Source: Escherichia phage vB_EcoP-ZQ2
DNA: 64,000 nucleotides
Reading direction: 5' to 3' (one strand)
Sequence record: NC_070874.1
The notes below the pieces were generated by a model. That model was given only the letters and a program-made list of their open reading frames with translations, was not told the DNA's origin and made no database searches. Positions within the stretch are counted from its first letter, which is position 1. Every line of letters begins with the position of its first letter. This document shows, in pieces, positions 22,625-36,529 of this stretch. Made by a program: the position numbers and the translations under genes.

Positions 22625-25600
22625 TTGAACAGGAATCATGCTATGTCAACATTTGACCGTCTGGCAGGTTTCGCAGACAGCATCACTACTGCTAAGCAAG
22701 TCGATGTCTCTACTGCAACCTCTCGGAAACAAGCTGAACAAGGGCAAAACCCTTTCCAATTAACCCCACAGAACGCCTACCAGTTACAGGCAGGTCGTGC
22801 CGGTGATTTAGGTGCTGGTGCATTTGACCCAGGTTCTATTCAGGCAGATTTTACTAATGCCTCTCCTCTTGAAATCATAAACAAGTATGGCAATGAGCAA
22901 GGAATGGACATTCTTAATGCTCGTGTCAATGCAGCTAATGCTGTTCGTCGTGATTTAACTAAGAGTCGTACATATGGTGAAGCACTTGGTGATACCCTTT
23001 CTGGTGTTGGTCTTGGTGTTGCTAATACCCTTGGGGGCATTGCTGCTCTTGGCACAGGCTTGGTCAATGATAATGCCGGGGCATCCATTGCTTCCGGTCT
23101 TGACTGGTTGAACAAAGGTGTACACAACCTACAGTCTGATGCACTGAATGCTCGTCGTAATGTAGTACAGAACCAGAACGTAATATCTGCACAGGAAAAC
23201 GAAAAACAATATAAGCAGGATATTGATAAAGGAGAAAGTGAACTCGTTGCTTCCTTGTCTCGTATTGGTCGGGATGCTTACGATTCAGTTGCTAATACTT
23301 TGTCCAATGGCATGGCTGCTACAGATGGTATTGCTGAAGGTGTTGGTTCACTGTTTACTGGTGGTCCACTTATCCGTGGTGTATCTGCACTTGGTAAAGT
23401 AATGGTAGGTGGGGATAAAGCTGTTAAGGGTATTACCTTAGCTGCTGAATTAGGTTATCGTCCTGCACGTATTGCACAGACTGCTGGTCGTGTTGCTGCA
23501 CCTGCTATAGCAATTGGTGGTATGGAAGCTGGTGGTGCATACCAACAGACTGCTAATGAAATTATGGAAATGCCATTCAGTGAACTGGCTGCTAAATCTC
23601 CTGTATACCAACAACATATTAAAGATGGTTTAACTCCTGAAGAAGCACGACGTCAGACTGCATCTGAAACAGGTATCACTGCTGCTGGCTTAACCGCCCC
23701 AGTTGCTGCTCTCACTGGTCCACTGGTATCCAAGTTTGAACTTAACCCACTTAAGGTAGGTTCACTGGCTGGTGCTGGTTCTAACATGCTACGTGAGACT
23801 GTGGAGGAAGGTATTCAATCCGGTTTCGGTCAATTCGCACAGAACAAAGCAATTCAGGGTAACGTGGATGCTAATCGTGATTTGCTTAAAGGTGTAGGTG
23901 AACAAACTGGTCTAGGTGCATTGTATGGCTTTGGTTCTGCTGGGGTTGCTCAAGCTCCTGGTGTAACTGCTAAGACTGCCGTTGCTGCCGTTGGTCCTGC
24001 TGTACGTACTACCCTGGCTGGTGCTTCTCTGGCTGGTAAGGCACTAGCAAAAGTAGCTTCTCCTATTACTAACATTCTGGTTCAGCGTGGAGAAGAAGTT
24101 GCTAAGCGAAATGAGCAAGCATCTCCTGTATCAGACGTTACGGTTAATGCTGCTGCACAAGAAGCTACTGCTCAGGCAGAACAGGCTCAAGCAACTGTTC
24201 AGGAAGCAGTAGATGCAATGGACATTTCTCCAGAAGAGAAAGCTGCTGCTACTCAGTATGCTGCTGACTTAACTCAGGCAATGAAGTTTGACCCAGTAGA
24301 ACTGGAACAAGCTAGTCCAGCAATCCGTGAAGCTGTTTCTGGTTCCACTAACCGTGTTGAAGCTATTCAGAAGATGGCTGACCTGGTTAATACTGCCGAA
24401 GATCCTAACGTTCAAATGGAAGCTGCAATCCAGATGTATGACAACATCATGTCTATGGATAGCTTCATTAACCGTGACCCAGGTGCATTAGCTAATCTGG
24501 AACAGGGTTCTCCTGCTGCTAATATTGTTGACCAGTTCTCCGGTCTGATGGCTAACGTTCAGAATACACCGAAGGTACTTCGTGCATTCCGTGCCATCCA
24601 TTCCATGATTCAGGAACAGGCAGAAGCAGGTAAACTGAAGGCTACTGAAGAAGCTAACCAAGCCCAAGCAAACAACATTGCTATGGCTGCTGATATGTCT
24701 CCAGAAGTACTGGATGCTGATTCAGTGAACATGGTTCTGAAACACGCAAGTGAAGGTAAGATTACGCTGGGGAATCGTCAGCGTGCTGCCCTGCAATCTG
24801 CTGCTGCTCTATTGCAAGGAGCACGAGAATTTGATGCTAAAGCAGAAGAGCTAGGCTTACGTCCTCAAGACATTGTTAGTAAACAAATTAAAACCGACGA
24901 ATCTCGTTCTAATGAAGGCCAGTACTCTGCGTTGCAACATGCTAAACGCATTCGTTCTGCGTATAACTCTGGTAACTTCGATTTGGCTTCCGCTTATCTC
25001 GATGACTTTATGAAGTTCGCCCAGCACATGCAGAATAAGGTCGGAGCGTTGAATGAGCATTTGATTTCTGGGAATGCGGATAAGAATAAGTCTGTCCATT
25101 ATCAGGCTCTTACTCCCTCCCGTGAATGGGTACGTAGTCGTACTGGCCTCGGTGTTAATCCGTATGATACCAAGTCTGTTAAGTTTGCCCAGCAAGTAGG
25201 ACTGGAAGCCAAGACCGTAGCTGATATTGCTAACGCACTTGCTACGGCTTACCCGGAGCTTAATGTTTCTCATGTGAAAGTTACCTCATTGGATTCACGT
25301 CTGGACAAGCCTGCTGCCCAGGTAGTTAAAGAGTTCCGTCAGGGCAATCTTGACGCTGCTCAATCCCAACAGACTAATGAACCAGTGAATCAGGTTGATG
25401 AAACTCCTGTTACAAAACAGGAACCAGTTACCCCTACTGTACAGACTAAACCCTCTGTTAGTGAAGCTGTTAAAACAGAACCCACTATTAAAGAGTCTAA
25501 ACCACAGTCTGTAAAAGAACCTGAGAACCAGTCTGAAAAACAGGATACCGTTGATCAGTCTACTGAATCTGAAAGGGATGCTTATGTAAAAGAGAATACT

Positions 25601-28600
25601 ATTTCTCAAGATACTCTTAATAAGTATGGCGACCGTAAAGAGAGTCCATGGCTCTTTGCTGATGGTACTGTTGTTGGTTCTAATGGTGACCACATTAGCT
25701 TGTCCGATGTATTTGGACATGATGGTTATCGTGATATGTCACTAGATACAGGTGCTATTCGCTCTACCTTCTACAAAGGAAGCGAGCAACCATTTGTATC
25801 ATTGCAACTGTTTGATAATCAGAAACTGACTACTGAACAGTTCAATACTGTTCAATCATTCGTAGAAGCAAACAATGCACTGATTCAGATTGGTGTAGAT
25901 ACATCTGGGCTTAATACCAATAACGTTGAGAAAGAAGAAGTATCACTGGCTCAATTGAAAGCAGACTATACCGTTGGTGGTAAACCTCTATCTCAAATGG
26001 AAACAGTGTTCCCTGTCTATAACAATGAAAAGACACCGAACCAGTTCCTTAAAGCATTCTCTCTACCGGAAGAACCTAAGTCCCGTACCATTGGTTCTGA
26101 ATCTCCTTTGACTGATGTTAAGAAAGCACTGTCTTCTGTTGCTCGCTTTGAATCATTCACTCAAAAAGAAAATAACGCTCTCACAAGTGATGTGATTAAG
26201 CGTTACCAGGACTTATTTGATTTTGGTGAAACTCTGAAGACTACTCTGTCTGACCGTCTGGCTAAGTTCCTTGCTAACAAGAATGTTGGTAAACGTTTTG
26301 CAGAAGGTACTGAGGCTAACCGTTGGGTAGGTGGTAAATTACTTAACATCGTAGAGAAAGACGGAGATACCTTTAAGTTCAATGACCAGTTGTTAGAGAC
26401 TGCTGTACTTGCTGGTCTGCAATGGCGACTGACTGCTACACAGAATGCTGCCATTAAAGACATGCAGGATGTGGCTGCAATTACTGGTGTAAATGCTTCC
26501 TTGTTACCAGAAGGTATCCTTGCAGAGTTTGAGAATGCTCAAACCTTAGTAGAAGCTACTAACTCACTGGCTCAAAAGATTGAATCTTATTGGGGTCTTA
26601 ACCGCAATGCTGATGCACCTCTGGGCTATACCAAAGGTATCCCGATGGCAATGGCTACAGAGATTCTGTCTTCCCTTATTGAGATGGGTGAAGTTAAAGA
26701 GTCCATGTTGGATGTGTCTGAAATTGACTCAGAATCTAATAAGACCATTGGCCTGTATACCATTGAGAAGCTGGATGATACCGACGCCATTAACAAATTC
26801 CCTACTGCTATTGAGGAAGCTGTCCTCATAGAACCAGAAGAGAAACTGTACCTGGGTGATGACATTCCTTCCGTGGCTCCTACTCAGTTACGTAACCCAG
26901 CTGTTCGTAATACCCCAGAACAGAAAGCTGCTCTTAAAGCAGAACAGGCTACAGAGTTCTTTGTACATACCCCAATGGTTCAGTTCTATGAGGCGTTAGG
27001 TAAAGACCGTATCCTCGAACTGATGGGTGCTGGTACTCTGAATAAAGAATTACTTAACGAGAACCACGCTAAATCGCTGGAAGGTAAGAACCGTTCAGTA
27101 GAAGACTCTTATAACCAATTGTTCTCTGTTATTGAACAGGTAAGAGCACAGAGTGAAGACATCTCTTCTGTGCCTATTCATTATGCATACAATATGACCC
27201 GTGTCGGTCGTATGCAGATGTTAGGTAAATATACCCCCCAATCAGCTAAGCTGGTTCGTGAGGCTATCTTACCTACCAAAGCTACCCTGGATTTATCGAA
27301 CCAGAACAACGAGGACTTCTCGGGCTTCCAGCTTGGACTGGCTCAGGCATTGGGTATCAAAGTTCATAAAATGACTCGTGAAACTATGTCAGAAGAACTT
27401 ACCAAAGCTCTGGAAGGTAAGCTGAAACCTGCTGTAGATATGATGGTTGAGTTTGATAAGTCTGGATACTTACCTACTGATGCAGTGGATATCTTGAGAA
27501 CATCTCTGGGTAATGATAAGTCCTTTGTAGCTCTCATGGCTCTTATGGAGTATGCCCGTTACCTTAACAGTGATGACCGTGCCAACTTTAATACTCCTCT
27601 GTACGTTGAAGCTGATGGTGTAACCAACGGACCAATCAACGCAATGGTATTAATGACAGGTGGTAAGTTCACTCCAAACTGGATTAAGAATACTGCCAAA
27701 GGTGGTTTGTTCTTCGGTAAAGCCGGTAAGACTATGAATGAGCATCATACTCAGGATGATAGTGTTGACCTGTATGAAGCATCTACCAATAGTCTGCAAT
27801 TCCATCTGAATGAATTACGTAATACTTATAGTAAGAATATTCCTGTTATAAACCAGATGGACCATCTCCAGAAGTTAATGGACCTGTTCATCAAAGACTT
27901 CAATCTTAATGAAGATGGTACTCTGGACCTGAAACGTGGTATCGCTAAAAACCCACTAACCATTACTATCTATGGTTCTGGTGCTCGTGGTATTGCAGGC
28001 AAAATGGTAAGTGCAATTACTGATACCATCTACGAGCGTCTAAGCGACGTTCTGAAAGCCCGTGCTGCTGACCCTAACATTTCCCCAGCTATGGCGATGT
28101 TTGGTAAGGAGGCTGCGTCTGAAGCCGATGCTCAGGCTAAGCTGGATACTTTCCTTACTTCTATGAAAGAACTGACTGGCAAGATTCCAGCCAAACGTAA
28201 AGGTAGGTTATTTATTAAGGAAGTAGAAGGTGCTCTGACTGGCAAGTTAAATCCTCAGAAGTTTACCGTATCAGGGGATGCTCTGAAGAACTTACAAGAG
28301 AATATGCTGCACTTCTTTGTTGAGCCAATGAGACAAGGTATTCGGTTTACTGTTGGTGAAGGATTAATGCACTCTACTGAGAACTTGCAGAAGGCTACCC
28401 AGATTCAATCTCTGGTATTGCAGGATATGTTCCAGCAAGCAGTACAGGCTAAGCTGGCAGAAAAAGAAAAAGACCCAACATGGAAGAAAGGTGATTTCTT
28501 AACACAGAAAGAACTGAATGAAATTCAGAATAGCTTAGCTCCTCTGGCTCCAATGATTAAAACTGGTTCGCAGACTTTCTACATTGCTGGTAGTGAGAAT

Positions 28601-31600
28601 ACTGATGTTGCTAACCAAGTATTGGCTACTAACTTAGATGACCGTATGCGTGTACCAATGAGCATCTATGCTCCTTCGCAAGCAGGTGTTGCAGGTATTC
28701 CATTTATGACCATCGGTACTGGTGATGGCATGATGATGCAGACTCTTTCTACTATGAAAGGTGCTCCGAAGAATACCCTGAAAATCTTTGATGGTATGAA
28801 CATTGGTATTAATGACATTACTGATGCAAGCCGTAAAGCTAATGAGGCTGTATATACTTCCTGGCAGGGTAACCCTATCAAGAATGTATATGAGTCTTTC
28901 TCTAAGTTTGTTAAGAATGTTGATTTAAATAAGCTGTCCGATTCAGCAATAGATGCTATTGCAAAGTCTGCTTTAGACTTTGAGCAGCGTGCTCATATTG
29001 CCAGGGTAGATGGTGATAGAGATTATAAAATTTCTATGATTAGAGATTCTGGTATTGCATTAATTGAGCGTAACCTACGTAACATTGCTTTGGGTGTAGA
29101 TATTCGTCACAAGGTAATGGACCAGGTACAAGTCACTGTTGACCAGATGGCTGCTGTAGGTGCTCCTTATGTGAACAACGGTAAAATCTCTCTGGAAGGT
29201 CTGACTATAGACCAGCAAGTAGCCAAGCTGAACGAACTGTTTGATGCTGAATTAAACAAGCGTCGTGATGCAGTACGTGCTGCTAAAGCGGAACCAACGA
29301 AGGCAGAACCAGTGAAGGAAGTGCCGGTGAAAGTTGTACCAGCTATGGAGAAGGTAGGTCGTGTACTGAAGTCTGGTGTACGTCTGCTGTCTAATACTGC
29401 TATCACTAAGCTGGCTAAAGAAATGACCCCTGATCAGCAAGCAGTATTGAAAGAAATACAGAAATCCCTTGCTGCTAAAGACTATAAGGTTGTTTACGGT
29501 ACACCTTCTCAACTGGATGCTTATGCCATTGAGAAGAATATTACTCGCCCAGCACCGGAAGATATTGAAGCTGCTGAAGCTGGTAATGCATACGGCTGGA
29601 CTAACTTTGAAGATAAGACCATCTACTTAGTTACCCCTTCCTTAGAGACTCTGGTTCATGAATTAGTACATGCCTCTACTTTTGAATCTGTGCTGGCTCA
29701 CTACGAGGGTACTCCTAATGAAGCAGTCCAGAATATTGAAGACTTGATGAACCAGTTCCTTACTCTGGATGTTAAGGATGAATCTCCGGCAGTACGTGAA
29801 GCGTATGCCGATGCACTGAATACCATTAATGGTCACCTGTCTAATGGCTTCATTGAACCAGCAATGGCTAAAGCTGCTGCTCTGAATGAGTACATGGCTT
29901 GGGGTTTAACCAACCGTGAACTTATTAGTAAGCAGAAGAAAACCACTGCACTTAAAACTATGGTTCAGGCTGTATATGAAGCAATCAAACGTCTGGTATT
30001 TGGGCGTAAGAAAGCTCCAGCTAATGCAGATGATATGTTCTCAGGCTTACTGTTTAACTCTGCTGTAGTAATGCGTGGGCAGGCTCCTACTGCTGCTGTA
30101 GCTAAAGACACTACTCTGTTCCATAACAAAGCATACGGTAACAATACTCGTCTGGAAGAGTTAGGTAAGACCTTCGATAAACTAATTACTGACTACATTG
30201 GTTCAGAACCAGTACAGCAAGTAATTCGTAAAGGTAAGTTCTCTGATGCAGTAGTGAATGCAACTAAAGTAACTCGTGATGTTCAGGCTCATGGCTTCAC
30301 CATGAATATGCAGGAACAGCGTCTATTTACTAACATTGTTGCTGCACTTGCTACTGAGGCTGCTATTAACCCAGCAGCCATGGCTCGTGCACAGGAATAC
30401 TACACGCATGTTACTAAGAACTTGACCGTTGAAGCGTTCATGGCTGACCCAGATAGTACTAACCCTGCTGACCGTTACTATGCACAACAGAAGTTCGACA
30501 CCATCATGGGTGCTAACAACATTGAGTTTGATGCACAAGGTCGTTCTTCCTTACTGCCTACCTTTGTTGGTCTGGCAATGGTAAGTGAAGAGGTACGTAA
30601 GGTACTGGCTGATATTCCTGTTATGAAAGCAGATAAGAAATCAGGTAATACTGTTGACGCAATGCTGACTAACATCGGTACTGCTGCAATGGTTAGTCTG
30701 AATGCTCGTGTAGCAGGTGATACTAAAGCCACTAACGTGCGGGAAGGTATGGATGCACTGGCTCAGACAATTATGGAGACTAGCCTTAATGCACAATCTT
30801 TCTATGATTCCGTTGCTACCCCTACTGGTAATGCTATCGACCGTGCTAACCAATATCTGGTGGATTCTATTGATGTACTGTCTACTCGTACTTTGGAAGG
30901 TGCTCGTGAAGTTGCAGCTAATACCAAGAACCCACTAGTTAAAGGTGCTGCTCATGCTGCACAATTGGTAGCTGCTATTGCTACAGAGAAAAATGGTGCA
31001 ATTGTAGCTGAGGGTGTTATGGCTGCAATGAACCAGGGTAAAGTATGGCAACCGTTCCATGACCTGGTTAATGACATAATCGGTCGTACTAAGAGCAATG
31101 CTTCTGTATACGATTTGATTAAAGCAGTACGTGCACAGGTGCAAGCTGACCGTCAACAGTTCCGTGAGCATTTGCCTACCACTATCGCATCTAAGTTCAG
31201 CCGTAAGCTGACTAATGATGAGTGGAAAGCAATGCATACCGGTATGGGTAAAACTGACTTAGCTGTTCTTCGTGACACTATGTCTCTGGCTGAAATCCGT
31301 GACCTGTTGACTGACCAGAAGATTGTTGACCGTGAGGTTAATAAACTGGAAGCAGATTTGCAGAAGCAAGCCGGACGTAACTGGCCTCTGATTAGTCGTA
31401 AGTCTAAGCAACTGGCTCAGTACATGATTAATGGTACAGTCGGTAATAACCTGCTGCGTAATGCTACTGCAATTTCTCGTTTACTGGGTGAACGTAAGAC
31501 TACACGTTCTGTTGTAGATGTAGCACAACTGGATAAATTGATTACCCTGTATGCACTGGAAGCAATGAATAAGACTGACCGTGAGATGTTATCTTCACTG

Positions 31601-33460
31601 GCTCAGACAGAAATTGAAGGCATGGACTTTGCTATTTCTTACCTGGTTGGTCAGCGTAAAGATGAAATGGCTAAAGCTAAATCTGATAGCCGTGCAACCT
31701 TGAACCAGTACAAAGGGTATATTCCCGGTGAGACTAAACAGGGTGTTAATCTGATTGTTGCTGAAGATAATCAGTTTGCTGATTTGATTGAGAAATCCTA
31801 TGTACGTCTGGGTACTTATCAGGGTAGCTCTGCTAACCGTGGTCCAGCACGTAGCTACTACTTTGCACCAGTACAGGCACAGGCTCCATTCTCACAGGGT
31901 ATTCTACAGAACGTTCGTAATACTGCTGGTGGTGTAGACCTTGGTACAGGCTTTACGATGGGGACCATGGTAGCTGGTCGTATCACTGACAAACCTTCCG
32001 TAGACCGTATCACTAAAGCACTGGCTCGTGGTGAACGTGGTAATGAACCACTGCTGCCTGTATATGATACCAATGGTAATGTGGTTGCTTATGAGCAATC
32101 CATTGACCCAAGCATGCTGAAGCACATCGAGGGTGAGAACCATCTTGCTCGTGCAATCGGTGTATGGCGAGGTCGTCAGGTAGAAGAGGCTAAGGCTCAG
32201 CGTTTCAACGATATGCTGATTGAGAACCTGCATAGCATGTATGAGAACGACATTAAAATGTCTGCTTCTAATAAGTCCCAGTACGTTAACCTTCTTGGTT
32301 CTAAACTGGACCCAGTAACTGCTGATGCACTTAAGCTGATGAACAGTGAAACTCGTCAGAAAGCAGAAAGTCTGTTTGGCCCGGGTGAGCTATGGGTACG
32401 TCGTGACATGCTGAATGATGCACTAGGTTATCGTGCAGCTTCTGTTGGTGATGCCTGGTCTGGTAATTCTCGTTGGTCCCCAGAAACACTGGATACCTTC
32501 AAGAAAGCTATGCTGGGTGTCTTCGGTAACCGAGCCTATAAATATGTAATGGGTGGTGAGAACCTGGTTCAAAACTTAGTTAAAGAAGCTAAGACTCTAA
32601 TTGTAGTTAAGTCAGTAGTTGTACCTGCTGTTAACTTCCTGGCTAACCTTTACCAGATGGTTGCTCGTGGTGTACCTGTTAAGAACATTGCTAAGAGCAT
32701 TCCACAGAAGACTGCTGAGATTAATCAGTACCTGAAATCTCGCCTGCGTCAGGTAGATGCAGAAGCAGAATTACGTGCAGCTACTAACCCGAACCAGATT
32801 CGTAAACTTAAGGCTGAGATTCAATCAATCACTGATAGCCATAAACGTTTGAGTATCTGGCCTCTGTTAGAAGCTGGTGAGTTCTCTTCAATTGCAGATG
32901 CTGGTATTGGACGTGATGACATCCTGATTACTGAAGGTAAGATTCACGAATACATGGATAAGCTGGCTGATAAGCTGCCTAAGTCTGTACGTAACGCAGG
33001 TCGTTATGCACTTATCACTAAGGATACTGCTCTGTTCCAGGGTATCCAGAAGACGGTTGAGTACTCTGACTTTATCGCTAAAGCAATCATCTATGATGAA
33101 CTGACTCAGCGTAAAGGTAAGACTCGCGAAGAAGCACTGGGACGTGTAACAGAAGAGTTCATTAACTATGACCGTCTGCCAGGTCGCTTCCGTGGGTATA
33201 TGGAAAGTGTTGGTCTTATGTGGTTCTATAACTTTAAGATTCGTTCTGCAAAAGTTGCAGTATCCATGATTCGTAACAACCCAGTACATGCTGCTATGGC
33301 TATGTTGGCCCCAACCCCTACCATGTTTGGTAATGTTGGTCTGCCTATTAAGGACAACATCTTTAGTATTGCTGCACAGGGCAACCTCGGTTACTCCTTC
33401 GGATTCGGTATGGGCTTACGTGCCCATACCCTGAACCCGTGGCTCAACCTTACTAACTAA
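22625..33460 (+). CDS. virion-encapsidated giant RNA polymerase (N4 vRNAP-like)
   Basis: single 3611-aa ORF; central region with T7-like RNAP-type motifs (IYGSGARGI, FDGMNIG); position next to internal virion protein genes. Confidence 0.8.
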   Translation: MNRNHAMSTFDRLAGFADSITTAKQVDVSTATSRKQAEQGQNPFQLTPQNAYQLQAGRAGDLGAGAFDPGSIQADFTNASPLEIINKYGNEQGMDILNARVNAANAVRRDLTKSRTYGEALGDTLSGVGLGVANTLGGIAALGTGLVNDNAGASIASGLDWLNKGVHNLQSDALNARRNVVQNQNVISAQENEKQYKQDIDKGESELVASLSRIGRDAYDSVANTLSNGMAATDGIAEGVGSLFTGGPLIRGVSALGKVMVGGDKAVKGITLAAELGYRPARIAQTAGRVAAPAIAIGGMEAGGAYQQTANEIMEMPFSELAAKSPVYQQHIKDGLTPEEARRQTASETGITAAGLTAPVAALTGPLVSKFELNPLKVGSLAGAGSNMLRETVEEGIQSGFGQFAQNKAIQGNVDANRDLLKGVGEQTGLGALYGFGSAGVAQAPGVTAKTAVAAVGPAVRTTLAGASLAGKALAKVASPITNILVQRGEEVAKRNEQASPVSDVTVNAAAQEATAQAEQAQATVQEAVDAMDISPEEKAAATQYAADLTQAMKFDPVELEQASPAIREAVSGSTNRVEAIQKMADLVNTAEDPNVQMEAAIQMYDNIMSMDSFINRDPGALANLEQGSPAANIVDQFSGLMANVQNTPKVLRAFRAIHSMIQEQAEAGKLKATEEANQAQANNIAMAADMSPEVLDADSVNMVLKHASEGKITLGNRQRAALQSAAALLQGAREFDAKAEELGLRPQDIVSKQIKTDESRSNEGQYSALQHAKRIRSAYNSGNFDLASAYLDDFMKFAQHMQNKVGALNEHLISGNADKNKSVHYQALTPSREWVRSRTGLGVNPYDTKSVKFAQQVGLEAKTVADIANALATAYPELNVSHVKVTSLDSRLDKPAAQVVKEFRQGNLDAAQSQQTNEPVNQVDETPVTKQEPVTPTVQTKPSVSEAVKTEPTIKESKPQSVKEPENQSEKQDTVDQSTESERDAYVKENTISQDTLNKYGDRKESPWLFADGTVVGSNGDHISLSDVFGHDGYRDMSLDTGAIRSTFYKGSEQPFVSLQLFDNQKLTTEQFNTVQSFVEANNALIQIGVDTSGLNTNNVEKEEVSLAQLKADYTVGGKPLSQMETVFPVYNNEKTPNQFLKAFSLPEEPKSRTIGSESPLTDVKKALSSVARFESFTQKENNALTSDVIKRYQDLFDFGETLKTTLSDRLAKFLANKNVGKRFAEGTEANRWVGGKLLNIVEKDGDTFKFNDQLLETAVLAGLQWRLTATQNAAIKDMQDVAAITGVNASLLPEGILAEFENAQTLVEATNSLAQKIESYWGLNRNADAPLGYTKGIPMAMATEILSSLIEMGEVKESMLDVSEIDSESNKTIGLYTIEKLDDTDAINKFPTAIEEAVLIEPEEKLYLGDDIPSVAPTQLRNPAVRNTPEQKAALKAEQATEFFVHTPMVQFYEALGKDRILELMGAGTLNKELLNENHAKSLEGKNRSVEDSYNQLFSVIEQVRAQSEDISSVPIHYAYNMTRVGRMQMLGKYTPQSAKLVREAILPTKATLDLSNQNNEDFSGFQLGLAQALGIKVHKMTRETMSEELTKALEGKLKPAVDMMVEFDKSGYLPTDAVDILRTSLGNDKSFVALMALMEYARYLNSDDRANFNTPLYVEADGVTNGPINAMVLMTGGKFTPNWIKNTAKGGLFFGKAGKTMNEHHTQDDSVDLYEASTNSLQFHLNELRNTYSKNIPVINQMDHLQKLMDLFIKDFNLNEDGTLDLKRGIAKNPLTITIYGSGARGIAGKMVSAITDTIYERLSDVLKARAADPNISPAMAMFGKEAASEADAQAKLDTFLTSMKELTGKIPAKRKGRLFIKEVEGALTGKLNPQKFTVSGDALKNLQENMLHFFVEPMRQGIRFTVGEGLMHSTENLQKATQIQSLVLQDMFQQAVQAKLAEKEKDPTWKKGDFLTQKELNEIQNSLAPLAPMIKTGSQTFYIAGSENTDVANQVLATNLDDRMRVPMSIYAPSQAGVAGIPFMTIGTGDGMMMQTLSTMKGAPKNTLKIFDGMNIGINDITDASRKANEAVYTSWQGNPIKNVYESFSKFVKNVDLNKLSDSAIDAIAKSALDFEQRAHIARVDGDRDYKISMIRDSGIALIERNLRNIALGVDIRHKVMDQVQVTVDQMAAVGAPYVNNGKISLEGLTIDQQVAKLNELFDAELNKRRDAVRAAKAEPTKAEPVKEVPVKVVPAMEKVGRVLKSGVRLLSNTAITKLAKEMTPDQQAVLKEIQKSLAAKDYKVVYGTPSQLDAYAIEKNITRPAPEDIEAAEAGNAYGWTNFEDKTIYLVTPSLETLVHELVHASTFESVLAHYEGTPNEAVQNIEDLMNQFLTLDVKDESPAVREAYADALNTINGHLSNGFIEPAMAKAAALNEYMAWGLTNRELISKQKKTTALKTMVQAVYEAIKRLVFGRKKAPANADDMFSGLLFNSAVVMRGQAPTAAVAKDTTLFHNKAYGNNTRLEELGKTFDKLITDYIGSEPVQQVIRKGKFSDAVVNATKVTRDVQAHGFTMNMQEQRLFTNIVAALATEAAINPAAMARAQEYYTHVTKNLTVEAFMADPDSTNPADRYYAQQKFDTIMGANNIEFDAQGRSSLLPTFVGLAMVSEEVRKVLADIPVMKADKKSGNTVDAMLTNIGTAAMVSLNARVAGDTKATNVREGMDALAQTIMETSLNAQSFYDSVATPTGNAIDRANQYLVDSIDVLSTRTLEGAREVAANTKNPLVKGAAHAAQLVAAIATEKNGAIVAEGVMAAMNQGKVWQPFHDLVNDIIGRTKSNASVYDLIKAVRAQVQADRQQFREHLPTTIASKFSRKLTNDEWKAMHTGMGKTDLAVLRDTMSLAEIRDLLTDQKIVDREVNKLEADLQKQAGRNWPLISRKSKQLAQYMINGTVGNNLLRNATAISRLLGERKTTRSVVDVAQLDKLITLYALEAMNKTDREMLSSLAQTEIEGMDFAISYLVGQRKDEMAKAKSDSRATLNQYKGYIPGETKQGVNLIVAEDNQFADLIEKSYVRLGTYQGSSANRGPARSYYFAPVQAQAPFSQGILQNVRNTAGGVDLGTGFTMGTMVAGRITDKPSVDRITKALARGERGNEPLLPVYDTNGNVVAYEQSIDPSMLKHIEGENHLARAIGVWRGRQVEEAKAQRFNDMLIENLHSMYENDIKMSASNKSQYVNLLGSKLDPVTADALKLMNSETRQKAESLFGPGELWVRRDMLNDALGYRAASVGDAWSGNSRWSPETLDTFKKAMLGVFGNRAYKYVMGGENLVQNLVKEAKTLIVVKSVVVPAVNFLANLYQMVARGVPVKNIAKSIPQKTAEINQYLKSRLRQVDAEAELRAATNPNQIRKLKAEIQSITDSHKRLSIWPLLEAGEFSSIADAGIGRDDILITEGKIHEYMDKLADKLPKSVRNAGRYALITKDTALFQGIQKTVEYSDFIAKAIIYDELTQRKGKTREEALGRVTEEFINYDRLPGRFRGYMESVGLMWFYNFKIRSAKVAVSMIRNNPVHAAMAMLAPTPTMFGNVGLPIKDNIFSIAAQGNLGYSFGFGMGLRAHTLNPWLNLTN

Positions 33461-33461
33461 A

Positions 33462-33495
33462 TAAAAAAGCCCCTCTAATGAGGGGCTTCTATTTT
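33462..33495. terminator. bidirectional rho-independent terminator at the convergence of late (+) and early/middle (-) transcription
   Basis: AAGCCCCTC-TAAT-GAGGGGCTT 9-bp stem flanked by A-run upstream and T-run downstream. Confidence 0.7.
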
Positions 33496-33856
33496 ACTTC
33501 TTAACTACAAGAGCTTTTCGGTCAGTTTTGATTACATAATCAATCTTGTTGGCATTAAAGTGAATATCTACAAAATTGGCGTCTACCTTTTGGTAAGTAC
33601 CGTTGTTTCTGCGAATACCTAACTTCTTACAGTGAACCATTGCGATTCCTGTATCCGGTATAGCAATCCAGTTGTTATCATCAATTTGTACATCACAACC
33701 AAAGGTTAAACGATGTCTTGCTTTACGATGGACATGTAAACCACCAATACGCTTTGGTATAATCTGACCCTTCCTAAAGAGTTCCAATGTTTGAACTTGA
33801 TGCGCTGCAAATGATTTAGTCATGCGTTCTCCACATCTTGGGCTTACGCCCTTCAC
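33494..33856 (-). CDS. hypothetical protein, possible degenerate HNH-like nuclease
   Basis: 120 aa; His/Asn spacing GGLHVHRKARHRL...DDNNW...VHCKK loosely HNH-like; overlaps upstream ORF by 41 nt. Confidence 0.3.
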   Translation of the reverse strand: MKGVSPRCGERMTKSFAAHQVQTLELFRKGQIIPKRIGGLHVHRKARHRLTFGCDVQIDDNNWIAIPDTGIAMVHCKKLGIRRNNGTYQKVDANFVDIHFNANKIDYVIKTDRKALVVKK

Positions 33857-34049
33857 TTGGAAATTTACCAGTCTCTTTAATCTTCCGTAATGTTTCCTCT
33901 GATGGGAACCACAGGAATGTGAAGTAAAGTTTCTTGGCTACGTAACGAGTTACTCCAAGTTTCTCTACGATTTCATCGAAAGAATATGTACGAACAGTAT
34001 TGTTGAGAATGGCCTCACGAACAACAGAGGTAATAGATACTTGTGTCAT
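33816..34049 (-). CDS. hypothetical protein (may be N-terminal part of a frameshifted gene with 33494..33856)
   Basis: 77-aa ORF. Confidence 0.3.
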   Translation of the reverse strand: MTQVSITSVVREAILNNTVRTYSFDEIVEKLGVTRYVAKKLYFTFLWFPSEETLRKIKETGKFPSEGRKPKMWRTHD

Positions 34050-34070
34050 GCTATTTTCCTATAAATGAGA

Positions 34071-34101
34071 AAGCCCTCACTAGGAGGGCTTGTTTTGTTT
34101 T
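34071..34101. terminator. hairpin terminator (plus-strand orientation: AAGCCCTC-ACTAG-GAGGGCTT plus GTTTTGTTTT)
   Basis: 8-bp stem and T-rich tract on + strand; second terminator about 600 nt downstream of vRNAP. Confidence 0.5.
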
Positions 34102-34175
34102 ACTGGCTTCTAGAGCCTTACTACTTTGTCGGGTAGTTCAGTACCTTTCGGTAAAAACTACCTTACACTTTTGAA

Positions 34176-34556
34176 TCAGATTGTACAACCACCACCATCA
34201 CATGTATTGTTTTCTGCAAATGAAGCCAGAGCCTTAGCAGTCTCTTCTTTCTCATGCAGTGCCTGACGTAGCAGGTAACCCTCTAATTCCCAAATCTTAT
34301 TGAATGCATTTTCATATGCATACTGACGACCCTTCTGCTCATCATAGATAGCCGGGTCTACGCAGGCAGATACACCCTCAACTTTAAAGTTGTTTTCCAG
34401 AATGATTACACAATAGGTTACCAGACCCAGGTTAGCCAAATCATCTGCTGGAAGTGCAGAGGGGTCAACGAATGCAGACTTCACTGCGTCAGCACCATTA
34501 AAATAGTAGACGCTCTTAATCTTAGCTTCAATTGCTTCTTTACTTACTGTTGCCAT
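34176..34556 (-). CDS. hypothetical protein
   Basis: ORF 34176..34568; start moved to second ATG (MATVSK) which has a GAGG Shine-Dalgarno 7 nt upstream. Confidence 0.5.
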   Translation of the reverse strand: MATVSKEAIEAKIKSVYYFNGADAVKSAFVDPSALPADDLANLGLVTYCVIILENNFKVEGVSACVDPAIYDEQKGRQYAYENAFNKIWELEGYLLRQALHEKEETAKALASFAENNTCDGGGCTI

Positions 34557-34611
34557 TATTAACCTCATAGAGTGGTTTGAATTTGTACTTAAACATGATT
34601 GTGCTTATTAG

Positions 34612-34645
34612 TACTCAAATAAAAAAGTCCCTCCGAAGAGGGACT
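34612..34645 (-). terminator. rho-independent terminator (minus strand) closing the tRNA/non-coding region
   Basis: minus strand AGTCCCTC-TTCG-GAGGGACT followed by TTTTTTATTT. Confidence 0.7.
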
Positions 34646-34872
34646 TAGTAGCTTTAACGCAGCTAACGAGGCTAGGCCAGTTAACTATTACCACCGGTGC
34701 TTGTACCAGCAAACAGGATTGATAGTCCGATAATAGATAACTGTATTTGAGCATTATAGTCTACTCATACTCACACCGATAGGTATGTTTTCAATAGCTA
34801 GAGTGCCGGACTGTCTCACCGGCATTGTCTTTAGAGTGCAATGCAATCAGGACTATGTTCTCTATTAATGAG

Positions 34873-34946
34873 TACCCACTACTGGATTTGAACCAGTGAC
34901 TTTCCAATTATTAGTTGGTTGCTTTCCCCGTCTAAGCTAAGTGGGC
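34873..34946 (-). tRNA. tRNA, 74 nt, anticodon read as AAU (Ile-type, atypical A34)
   Basis: hand-folded cloverleaf: acceptor GCCCACT/AGTGGGT (one G-U), D-stem GCTT/AAGC, anticodon stem CCAA/TTGG with loop CTAATAA, T-stem ACTGG/CCAGT with loop TTCAAAT, discriminator A. Confidence 0.6.
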
Positions 34947-36031
34947 ATAATGGGTGAGTCATGCCAGACTTTAACTGGCTCCTTCTTCGCAATCCTTACA
35001 TACCCCTACATAATTATTGCGTTAAGCTTTTTTGTTTAAGTTTAAGTGAAGGCGTTCTTGCTGACTCATAATAGGGTGGGCGTTTGACGAATGACTAGTT
35101 CGTTACTACCCATTTGCCATAAGTACCTGGCGACTTCGGATAACGGGGGATGGAATCGAACCACCAGTATTAAGTCTTATTCGTGCACCAAGCACGCTAG
35201 TAGATTACTCTACCGGAGGGAATCGAACCCCATCTACTTCACCAGACCCGTCATAATTCTTACAATTCAAAGTAGCACTGCTCCATGTTTGGCCTTTGAA
35301 CTCCGGGATGGATTAGTACAATGCTACTTTGAATTAATTGCCAGGGATTCCACCTGGCTCCATCTGTTTTTATAGTCACTCAGATATCGTCTGGACTTTG
35401 ATAGCACAACCTATCAAAGAGTACACTAAGCACAGGTAGCTATCCTGCCGTCTTCTCCACCTACACCGGCTACAGTGTAGACCTCCGCACGTTAGCTTAA
35501 TGTACTCATTGATAGGATGTCATAATAGGGGAGGGAGGACGAGTCCCTCTTTACCCTATGATTTAGTTTACATGTAAGACCTAACATTTCAATGCTGGAT
35601 GAATAGCGTAATGAACTATCCGACATTAATGATTAATGTTGTGCTCAGCATGAGCGTTAGTTTGATAAGGGATCTGAAGCCTTACCCCAAAGATACTAAC
35701 CTTTGGGGTATAGCCTAAGATTCAGAAATGGCCCCCCATATAGAGAGAGGCCATTGATTAACCCGAATGTTGCTTTACATTTTCTGTGATAACCCATTCT
35801 TAAAATAGTCTGACTGACGGATGGGGGGCCACCCCTAGCGTCAGTGCCATACGGCAAAGATTAAGTTAAGAAAGGTTATGATAGGAGTTCCTATCTCAAA
35901 GGATTCTAACAGAACCCTTCACGATATTAACTACTCACTGTGAAATTCTTTGTTTCCTTCAACAGGTTCTACACCCAAGAAAAAGCTAACTTTTCACTTA
36001 GTTTAGATTGAACCAACGGACTGGGGAGAGT

Positions 36032-36529
36032 TTATCTCCCATGGCGTAAGGTGTAGTTGTGATTCTTTACCAGGTCTGCTTCTATAGTAGCCCGGTATGC
36101 TATAGCAGCATCTTTGGCTTCGCTATCCCCAAGAACACCAATGTTGAAGCTTTTAGTTCGTAGCTTACCTGTATGCGGATCATTCCAAGCAGCAGTCCAA
36201 TATTCGTTGGTCTTCTTCCATTGTCTATACACACCGGTAGTGCCTGATGTATTGTCACTTCTTTTGCGACGATTGCGACAGTTAATCATATGGGACACTA
36301 GTCTCATATTAATAAGTCGACAATCGGTTGGGATTCCATTGATGTGGTCAACTTCATACCCATCCGGGATTGGTCCATTATAGTATTCCCAAATCCAGTT
36401 GTGCAGAAATACCCTCACCCCATGACGTTTAATACGGATGTACCCATCCTTTGCATTGGCATCATCGGGAGAATGTACTACAGCGAGTTCATGGGCAGGT
36501 TTATTCCAGTATCCTAATGGCTTGCTCAT
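36032..36529 (-). CDS. HNH homing endonuclease (HNH plus AP2-like DNA-binding region)
   Basis: ...YEVDHINGIPTDCRLINMRLVSHMIN...TSGTTGVYRQ... typical free-standing phage HNH. Confidence 0.75.
   Translation of the reverse strand: MSKPLGYWNKPAHELAVVHSPDDANAKDGYIRIKRHGVRVFLHNWIWEYYNGPIPDGYEVDHINGIPTDCRLINMRLVSHMINCRNRRKRSDNTSGTTGVYRQWKKTNEYWTAAWNDPHTGKLRTKSFNIGVLGDSEAKDAAIAYRATIEADLVKNHNYTLRHGR

Follow-up and report, generated by a model that had tools for sequence, protein, structure and literature searches.

The window analysed here is a stretch of 64,000 nucleotides (nt) from Escherichia phage vB_EcoP-ZQ2 (NC_070874.1), and our subject is a short segment of it, positions 33461 to 34101, in which two small overlapping open reading frames on the minus strand, ORF1 and ORF2, lie between two hairpins. 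The phage belongs to Gamaleyavirus (G7C-like, N4-like; Schitoviridae), and the DNA around the segment has matches in 68 phage records at 80-95% identity, nearly all of them from Escherichia or Shigella Gamaleyavirus. An initial annotation, made from the letters alone, had placed the two hairpins and the two reading frames correctly, describing the hairpins as terminator-like structures that flank a short module at a convergence point. The strand switch is real as well: the gene for the virion RNA polymerase (vRNAP) ends at 33460 on the plus strand, and rightward of this position all credible genes lie on the minus strand. The interval whose left edge is the vRNAP stop codon at 33460 and whose right-hand neighbour is a gp49-like gene is called the slot below, and the genes between its hairpins the cargo. 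The locus contains the following features:

22625..33460, plus strand: vRNAP gene, 3611 amino acids (aa); homologues are annotated as virion RNA polymerase or gp50
33461..33496 (stem-loop 33465-33490), both strands: hairpin 1, a putative bidirectional intrinsic terminator flanked by an A-run (left) and a T-rich stretch (right)
33494..33823, minus strand: ORF1 from its ATG (109 aa; maximal ORF from a GTG, 33494..33856), with a GGAG Shine-Dalgarno sequence 5 nt upstream of the ATG
33494..33786, minus strand: body of ORF1, from the last two bases of codon 13 through the stop, homologous to the 97-aa family phrog_29107
33787..33823, minus strand: chimeric 5' end of ORF1, the start codon and first ~12 codons (MTKSFAAHQVQT), from a 68-aa gene of relatives
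33816..34049, minus strand: ORF2, 77 aa, phrog_9565 (E 9.3e-32)
34050..34070, minus strand: leader of 21 nt from hairpin 2 to the ORF2 ATG, with an AGGA ribosome-binding site; too short for a promoter
34071..34101 (stem-loop 34071-34091), no strand assigned: hairpin 2, with a plus-strand U-tract (GTTTTGTTTT); right boundary of the cargo
34092..34175, no strand assigned: conserved non-coding spacer from hairpin 2 to the stop codon of the gp49-like gene, with a small hairpin (GGCTTCTAGAGCC) and a 32-nt element
34176..34568, minus strand: gp49-like gene (Pfam Phage_gp49_66, PF13876, E 2.5e-25), right-hand neighbour of the slot

A slot of variable gene content in related phages

Homologues of ORF1, ORF2, the gp49-like gene and two further genes of relatives, one of 68 aa and one Tad2-like, were mapped onto about 40 related loci. 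For this survey we used a search with the vRNAP C-terminus instead of a scan of IMG/VR for the core of hairpin 2, which returned mostly unrelated contigs and was useless for the purpose. Between the same flanking core genes, vRNAP and the gp49-like gene (which adjoins the slot in most relatives), the content is variable, as expected of an accessory region, and the order is constant: hairpin 1, ORF1-like, 68-aa gene, ORF2-like, Tad2-like, hairpin 2. Across about 20 Gamaleyavirus loci the occupancy falls into ten patterns, the empty slot included, and the window adds an eleventh of its own. Nine of the ten are:

Slot empty: HK2, U1G
Tad2-like only: ECBP1
ORF2-like only: G7C, pSb-1
ORF2-like and Tad2-like: SP5M, Mimir124
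68-aa gene and ORF2-like: nithesis
68-aa gene, ORF2-like and Tad2-like: 24-32N, Moonfish, IME11
ORF1-like only: St11Ph5
ORF1-like and Tad2-like: Bas96, PE007
ORF1-like, 68-aa gene, ORF2-like and Tad2-like: E20

Every Gamaleyavirus relative with cargo has hairpin 2, nearly unchanged in sequence and with the same loop throughout; N4 and the empty-site phages HK2 and U1G lack it. At the empty site of HK2 and U1G, one hairpin directly adjoins the sequence found elsewhere on the right flank of hairpin 2, and cargo and one hairpin are therefore gained and lost together. Pairwise blastn comparisons place mosaic junctions at 33496/33497 (the right edge of hairpin 1), 33786/33795 and 34061/34063 (just before hairpin 2), and at 34062-34063 all relatives become homologous to the window again. 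Collinearity with nithesis, at ~94%, extends rightwards from 33793, and the body of ORF1 is nearest to St11Ph5, PE007 and E20. No mobility gene was found in the module.

The Tad2-like gene, assigned in ECBP1 to PF11195 with 84 bits against a Pfam cut-off of 25, is found beside vRNAP in N4 itself, and none is present in the whole 64-kb window. In five relatives (SP5M, Mimir124, 24-32N, Moonfish and E20) it is followed by the ORF2-like gene after a gap of ~10 nt. The 68-aa gene belongs to PF21825 and is crAss001_48-related (E 9.8e-17 for the nithesis protein); in nithesis, Moonfish, IME11 and E20 its place is after ORF2. A variant of ORF2 with 92 aa recurs (in E20, L001 2448-2726; also P0077, P0080 and P0084): its stop TAA has become AAA, so that the protein runs into the overlapping 68-aa gene, and the annotation of E20 therefore splits the latter. 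The right-hand flank can change as well: in phage G7C (L076 4997-5146) the gp49-like gene encodes only 49 aa and retains just the N-terminal MRLIM and the C-terminal ...GGCTI, and thus this otherwise conserved neighbour of the slot is itself dispensable.

Taken together, we think it likely that what the segment contains is the present cargo of a conserved Gamaleyavirus slot for accessory genes, bounded by terminator hairpins and situated where transcription converges.

The two hairpins and expression of the cargo

Hairpin 1 has a stem of 9-11 bp with 6 G-C pairs and a 4-nt loop, and was detected on both strands, with folding energies (dG) of -17.8 kcal/mol on the plus strand and -20.4 on the minus strand (z about -5; 0 of 200 shuffled sequences fold equally well). 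The stem starts 5 nt past the vRNAP stop codon and ends 4 nt short of the ORF1 stop codon, at the 3' ends of convergent genes, and on each strand a stable GC-rich stem-loop is followed by a U-tract, as in an intrinsic terminator (tails CTATTTTACT on the plus and TTTTTTATTT on the minus strand). The plus tail is interrupted in the window, compared with TTTTATTTTG in the empty-site phage U1G. In nearly all of the N4-like loci examined, the vRNAP stop is followed by a GC hairpin with A- and T-runs; N4 is among them, with an identical GCCCCTCTAATGAGGGGC. The stem GCCCCTC/GAGGGGC is common to Gamaleyavirus and N4, and other N4-like genera carry entirely different stems at the same position; since structure is kept while sequence changes, this is good evidence of function. 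Further, the annotation of phage SP5M has terminators on both strands at the homologous site, and an Rfam scan of 33300-36100 at a permissive E-value gave, at hairpin 1, weak, sub-threshold matches limited to the terminator portions of small RNA and leader models, and otherwise found only a tRNA-Ile. These properties fit a putative bidirectional intrinsic terminator.

Hairpin 2 has a stem of 8 bp with 5 G-C pairs and a 5-nt loop, with dG of -16.4 on the plus and -12.7 on the minus strand; taken by themselves, these energies are only modestly unusual (z about -2.6). The tail is good on the plus strand (GTTTTGTTTT) and much poorer on the minus strand (TCTCATTTAT). Its conservation argues for a function without saying which one, and we regard it as a putative back-up terminator for plus-strand read-through and a putative leaky attenuator on the minus strand. 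The exact 18-nt core (AAGCCCTCACTAGGAGGG) was also seen in 60 IMG/VR viral contigs (L011-L070), mostly from outside Gamaleyavirus and 4 to 175 kb long; the palindrome is thus shared by many unrelated phages or has converged in them.

N4 follows a three-polymerase programme in which late genes such as vRNAP are transcribed by the host sigma-70 RNA polymerase and genes of the opposite strand by phage polymerases (PMC4496689). By analogy, the vRNAP gene of the window would be a late gene and, judging from synteny with N4, the genes shielded from its read-through would be middle genes. The initial annotation had suggested that tandem terminators block convergent read-through into early genes; such a block is plausible on the plus strand, where hairpin 2 has a good U-tract, but the neighbours to be protected are probably middle and not early genes. 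In the scheme that we propose, hairpin 1 would end both the late vRNAP transcript made by the host polymerase and the leftward message. Given the interrupted plus tail of hairpin 1 and the good plus U-tract of hairpin 2, the latter, which would have kept the ancestral T-tract on this strand, may provide a second stop, after hairpin 1, to antisense transcription running on into the middle genes. A sigma-70 scan of the minus strand from 34050 to 34175, which did not cover promoters of the phage RNA polymerase RNAPII, returned no promoter-like site. Considering the weak minus-strand U-tract of hairpin 2 together with the 21-nt leader devoid of a promoter-like site, ORF2 and ORF1 would depend on transcription that reads through from the gp49-like unit, giving a single bicistronic message with coupled translation. 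The literature offers no transcript map covering this site for N4 or G7C-like phages, and the paper on the G7C set contains no description of this locus.

The hairpins could also act mainly as recombination substrates, the GC-rich palindromes serving as points of crossover or deletion and termination being secondary; we hold this to be unlikely as the principal role, yet deserving of serious attention. Within the genus the loop of hairpin 1 (33476-33479) is free while the stem is fixed, and the loops form reverse-complement pairs (TAAT/ATTA, ACTA/TAGT and TATT/AATA; L001-L010 and L074-L100), so that the centre of the palindrome has been flipped repeatedly, which points to events mediated by hairpins or cruciforms. 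Of the three mosaic junctions two abut hairpins, the empty-site genomes resemble a deletion from hairpin 1 to hairpin 2 that leaves one hairpin and the right flank of hairpin 2, and the exact hairpin 2 core occurs in contigs of very different sizes. In addition, there is a published proposal that a terminator-like stem-loop restricts recombination at tail-spike genes in the G7C-like group (10.1101/542787). However, the hairpins are also the conserved sequences nearest to the variable region, where ordinary homologous recombination would put junctions in any case; gene order in the slot is fixed, internal junctions lie at gene boundaries that have no hairpin, and the two hairpins are only ~75% identical over ~21 nt.

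We consider it doubtful that the module is a classical moron, that is, a unit with its own promoter and terminator inserted between vRNAP and gp49 and expressed autonomously. Presence and absence at a fixed site (the slot being empty in HK2 and U1G and the cargo thus missing from relatives), the terminator directly downstream in the form of hairpin 1, the G+C content of the ORF1 body (0.37, against 0.43 +/- 0.03 in the window) and the terminator-flanked cassette that holds Skatevirus homologues of ORF1 would all agree with it. But an own promoter is not apparent in the 21 nt from hairpin 2 to the ORF2 ATG or, as a sigma-70-like site on the minus strand, anywhere in 34050-34175; the spacer upstream of hairpin 2 is kept in empty-slot phages too and is therefore not specific to the cassette, and the cargo genes are all co-oriented with the upstream operon.

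The two genes and the origin of the ORF1 start

The suspicion that the two reading frames are one frameshifted gene did not hold. Each matches its own PHROG family over its full length (ORF1 covers essentially the whole profile of phrog_29107, E 7.8e-45) and each occurs alone in relatives, ORF1-like in St11Ph5 and ORF2-like in G7C and pSb-1. No relative encodes one continuous protein spanning both, and the merged translation, whose profile search the initial annotation had proposed, had no match in Pfam, NCBIfam or PADLOC. The ratios of non-synonymous to synonymous substitution rates (dN/dS) against relatives, 0.14-0.30 for ORF1 and 0.04-0.10 for ORF2, indicate that both are maintained coding genes. 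The ORF2 stop and the ORF1 ATG overlap by 8 nt (ATGACTAA) and the GGAG lies inside the 3' end of ORF2; judged by its sequence, this is the usual layout of translationally coupled genes and carries no frameshift signature. ORF1 and ORF2 thus appear as separate genes of two unrelated orphan families under purifying selection, and should be annotated as two genes, with ORF1 as a natural fusion, which clears up the suspected frameshift or pseudogene.

ORF2 is basic (isoelectric point, pI, 9.8) and its predicted structure has four helices; the top fold matches are mostly helix-turn-helix (HTH) DNA-binding domains, to which the resemblance is weak. ORF2-like proteins of 76-77 aa are found in many Gamaleyavirus, at 50% identity at the same locus in Moovirus, and at ~40% identity between gp2 and gp2.5 in T7-like Przondovirus. 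There was no match above noise in Pfam, NCBIfam or PADLOC. We rate as rather improbable the possibility that ORF2 is an HTH autoregulator of an anti-defence operon, similar to anti-CRISPR-associated (Aca) proteins, with ORF1 as a further effector under its control. The small, basic, helical protein with its HTH-like fold matches would suit such a role, and so would the position of ORF2-like genes ~10 nt downstream of the Tad2-like/AcrIIA7-like gene in five relatives. Nevertheless, ORF2 matched no Aca structure and no HTH family significantly, be it in sequence or in fold, no promoter or operator was identified, and the linkage is not obligate: ORF2-like genes are found without a Tad2-like gene in the window, nithesis, G7C, pSb-1, Moovirus and Przondovirus.

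ORF1 is basic as well (pI 10.1), and its AlphaFold model consists of eleven short beta-strands and no helix, with a local confidence score (pLDDT) of ~83 in the core; this predicted all-beta fold has no neighbour in the PDB, and profile searches of PDB sequences gave noise only. The body of ORF1 is 84-89% identical to 97-aa proteins of St11Ph5, E20, PE007, Bas96 and F22, with DNA homology over 33497-33786; a 97-aa ORF1-like protein is also present in KKP 3715, and homologues at ~76% identity are present in the unrelated siphoviruses Skate, DS8 and swi2. In Salmonella phage Skate (L073 2293-3192) the homologue is one of four small orphan genes that form a cassette, placed between the genes for the terminase large subunit and the portal and flanked by annotated terminators, and this Skatevirus cassette is a second, independent terminator-bounded accessory slot that holds the ORF1 family. 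An exhaustive profile search extended the family to 124 representative clusters, all small stand-alone orphans, and its two longer matches (P0131 and P0162) gave no informative fusion. The only conserved positions in the family are G19, P23, K34, H37, F41, G42, D44, N74 and G75.

The first ~12 codons of ORF1 have another origin. The 68-aa gene begins with MTKSFAAHQ in nithesis and MTKSFAEHQ in Moonfish, by protein and nucleotide alignment, and tblastn with the 68-aa proteins matches the window at 33823-33782. The native ATG of the 97-aa family is TTG in the window (33787-33785), and the AGGAG ribosome-binding site of the family has been lost. ORF1 is therefore an in-frame fusion that uses the start signals of a deleted gene, with the junction within 33787-33794, where homology to nithesis begins at 33793. 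The extra N-terminal residues are predicted to be disordered. The fusion is best explained by a deletion or replacement on what looks like a nithesis-like backbone. Direct adjacency of ORF2 and ORF1 is seen in the window only (E20 has both, with the 68-aa gene in between); the fusion junction occurs in no phage record searched, and the exact protein is absent from the assembly collection.

This recent adjacency makes it very unlikely that the pair is a type II toxin-antitoxin-like system, with an upstream HTH antitoxin and a downstream toxin of ~100 aa: sizes, architecture, overlapping stop and start and the basic nature of both proteins would fit, but the arrangement arose by loss of the intervening 68-aa gene and is not seen in any further phage record searched, either gene is stably carried on its own without regular co-occurrence of the two, and no toxin-antitoxin family was matched. 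Scarcely tenable, likewise, is the view that the two frames are halves of one frameshifted, decaying HNH homing endonuclease or another mobile-element remnant, for which speak their small size and overlap, the His and Asn residues of ORF1 (H37, D44 and N74 being ~87-89% conserved in the family), a genuine HNH_3 and AP2 gene elsewhere in the genome and the remnant of a deleted gene really fused to ORF1, and against which stands the conservation of both frames as separate genes in relatives.

ORF1 itself was considered as an HNH endonuclease and rejected. The HNH-like His/Asn pattern that the initial annotation saw in it dissolves into scattered residues, those other than H37, D44 and N74, among them the histidines of the HVH motif, not being conserved, and neither an HNH fold nor an HNH profile match was found. 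ORF1 had no match above noise in Pfam, NCBIfam or PADLOC, and none of 62 family members tested matched an HNH model or belonged to any Pfam family. As for a decaying mobile element, the low dN/dS values and the missing mobility gene contradict the idea, and what survives of it is that the first ~12 codons of ORF1 are a relic of the deleted 68-aa gene.

Several other features were observed to the right of the cargo. The 32-nt element of the spacer (GGGTAGTTCAGTACCTTTCGGTAAAAACTACC, 34131-34162) forms a nested hairpin on the minus strand (dG -22.2, z -3.2) and is identical in the sequences of 14 distinct relatives, empty-slot phages included, while its flanks vary; it has no further copy in the window and no Rfam match. 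It may be a processing site, a phage-polymerase signal or a protein-binding site. A third hairpin was also detected:

34625..34646, minus strand: hairpin 3, terminator-like (AAGTCCCTCTTCGGAGGGACTT with tail TTTTATTTGA), upstream of the gp49-like gene and conserved in relatives

The gp49-like gene is thus also bracketed by hairpins. An 18-codon ORF (MFKYKFKPLYEVNNGNSK) follows hairpin 3 and overlaps the start of the gp49-like gene. Some 1.4 kb (34569-36031) contain no convincing ORF, and the sole tRNA detected there is a tRNA-Ile with anticodon AAT (34872-34946); annotations of relatives give other or extra tRNAs at the counterpart (Ala, Thr-pseudo, Val and 'OTHER'), and the stretch looks like a decaying, variable tRNA cluster. 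Beside this largely non-coding stretch, ~2 kb right of the segment, is the homing-endonuclease-type gene with HNH_3 (E 3.5e-17) and AP2 domains (36032-36529, minus strand).

Role of the slot and comparison with known systems

In our scheme the products of the cargo would be small basic accessory proteins that the phage can dispense with. ORF2 would probably bind DNA through its HTH-like helical domain and ORF1, going by its model, may be an all-beta protein of a new fold class. Host takeover or counter-defence would be the most likely role of the cargo, given that the slot is shared with a Tad2-like, anti-Thoeris type of immune-signal sponge in relatives; this is the weakest step. Several points weigh against the accessory-slot interpretation as a whole. 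Terminator activity, its direction and read-through are all deduced from the sequence, and the leftward genes probably depend on the phage RNAPII for their transcription. Hairpin 2 could terminate efficiently on the minus strand, leaving ORF2 and ORF1 without an evident promoter; purifying selection on both nevertheless argues for their expression. Counter-defence is suggested by the neighbourhood only; a Tad2-like gene is missing from the window, and neither PADLOC nor any other library gave a match to either protein. Finally, simple differential deletion, in which the hairpins would have no role in recombination, would agree equally well with the fixed gene order.

A bolder proposal would make the vRNAP/gp49 slot an anti-defence island of the Enquatrovirinae, with ORF1, the HTH-like ORF2 and the 68-aa families as new counter-defence or takeover factors swapped via the terminator palindromes; we offer it tentatively and think it is probably not correct in full. 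At the least, since the slot alternately holds a Tad2-like sponge and three orphan families, the orphans are reasonable and cheaply testable anti-defence candidates. The slot also amounts to a compact natural 'landing pad' in G7C-like therapeutic coliphages and, since it can be empty, is a plausible site to test for engineering. The tandem hairpins provide a simple test case for the insulation of convergent late and middle transcription in N4-like phages, and for the guidance of cassette exchange by terminator palindromes.

As to its kind, the slot is a known, ordinary phage feature that would not surprise a phage genomicist. The morons of lambdoid phages are promoter-gene-terminator units inserted between core genes (Hendrix and colleagues). 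Like them, the cargo brings additional genes to a gene boundary, has a terminator behind it, deviates in base composition and is missing from some close relatives; unlike them, it has no detectable promoter of its own, its genes are co-oriented with the upstream operon and abut it, and the host phage is virulent. In LUZ7, an N4-like Pseudomonas phage, bidirectional terminators between convergent genes have been mapped and validated (PMC9163698). The hairpins described here share with these the GC-rich stem-loop, the A-run and T-run and the position between convergent stop codons in an N4-like genome, and differ in that their activity is putative, that two of them in tandem enclose cargo and that the phage RNAPII, not the host polymerase, probably transcribes the leftward strand. 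At the tail-spike genes g63.1/g66 of G7C-like phages a terminator-like stem-loop is proposed to bound recombination (10.1101/542787). This case also concerns a conserved stem-loop at the edge of a swapped module in the same phage group, at another locus and with C-terminal domains being exchanged instead of whole small genes, and the role in recombination is a proposal in both. Finally, phage accessory regions are hotspots of variable accessory and anti-defence genes between core genes (10.1101/2023.04.06.535777). The cargo of the window differs from theirs in having no demonstrated or homology-based anti-defence function, and the repertoire of the slot is small, four families in fixed order rather than an open-ended collection; in common with them, it occupies a fixed locus, between vRNAP and the gp49-like gene, where small orphans are present or absent and a Tad2-like gene is among the alternatives.

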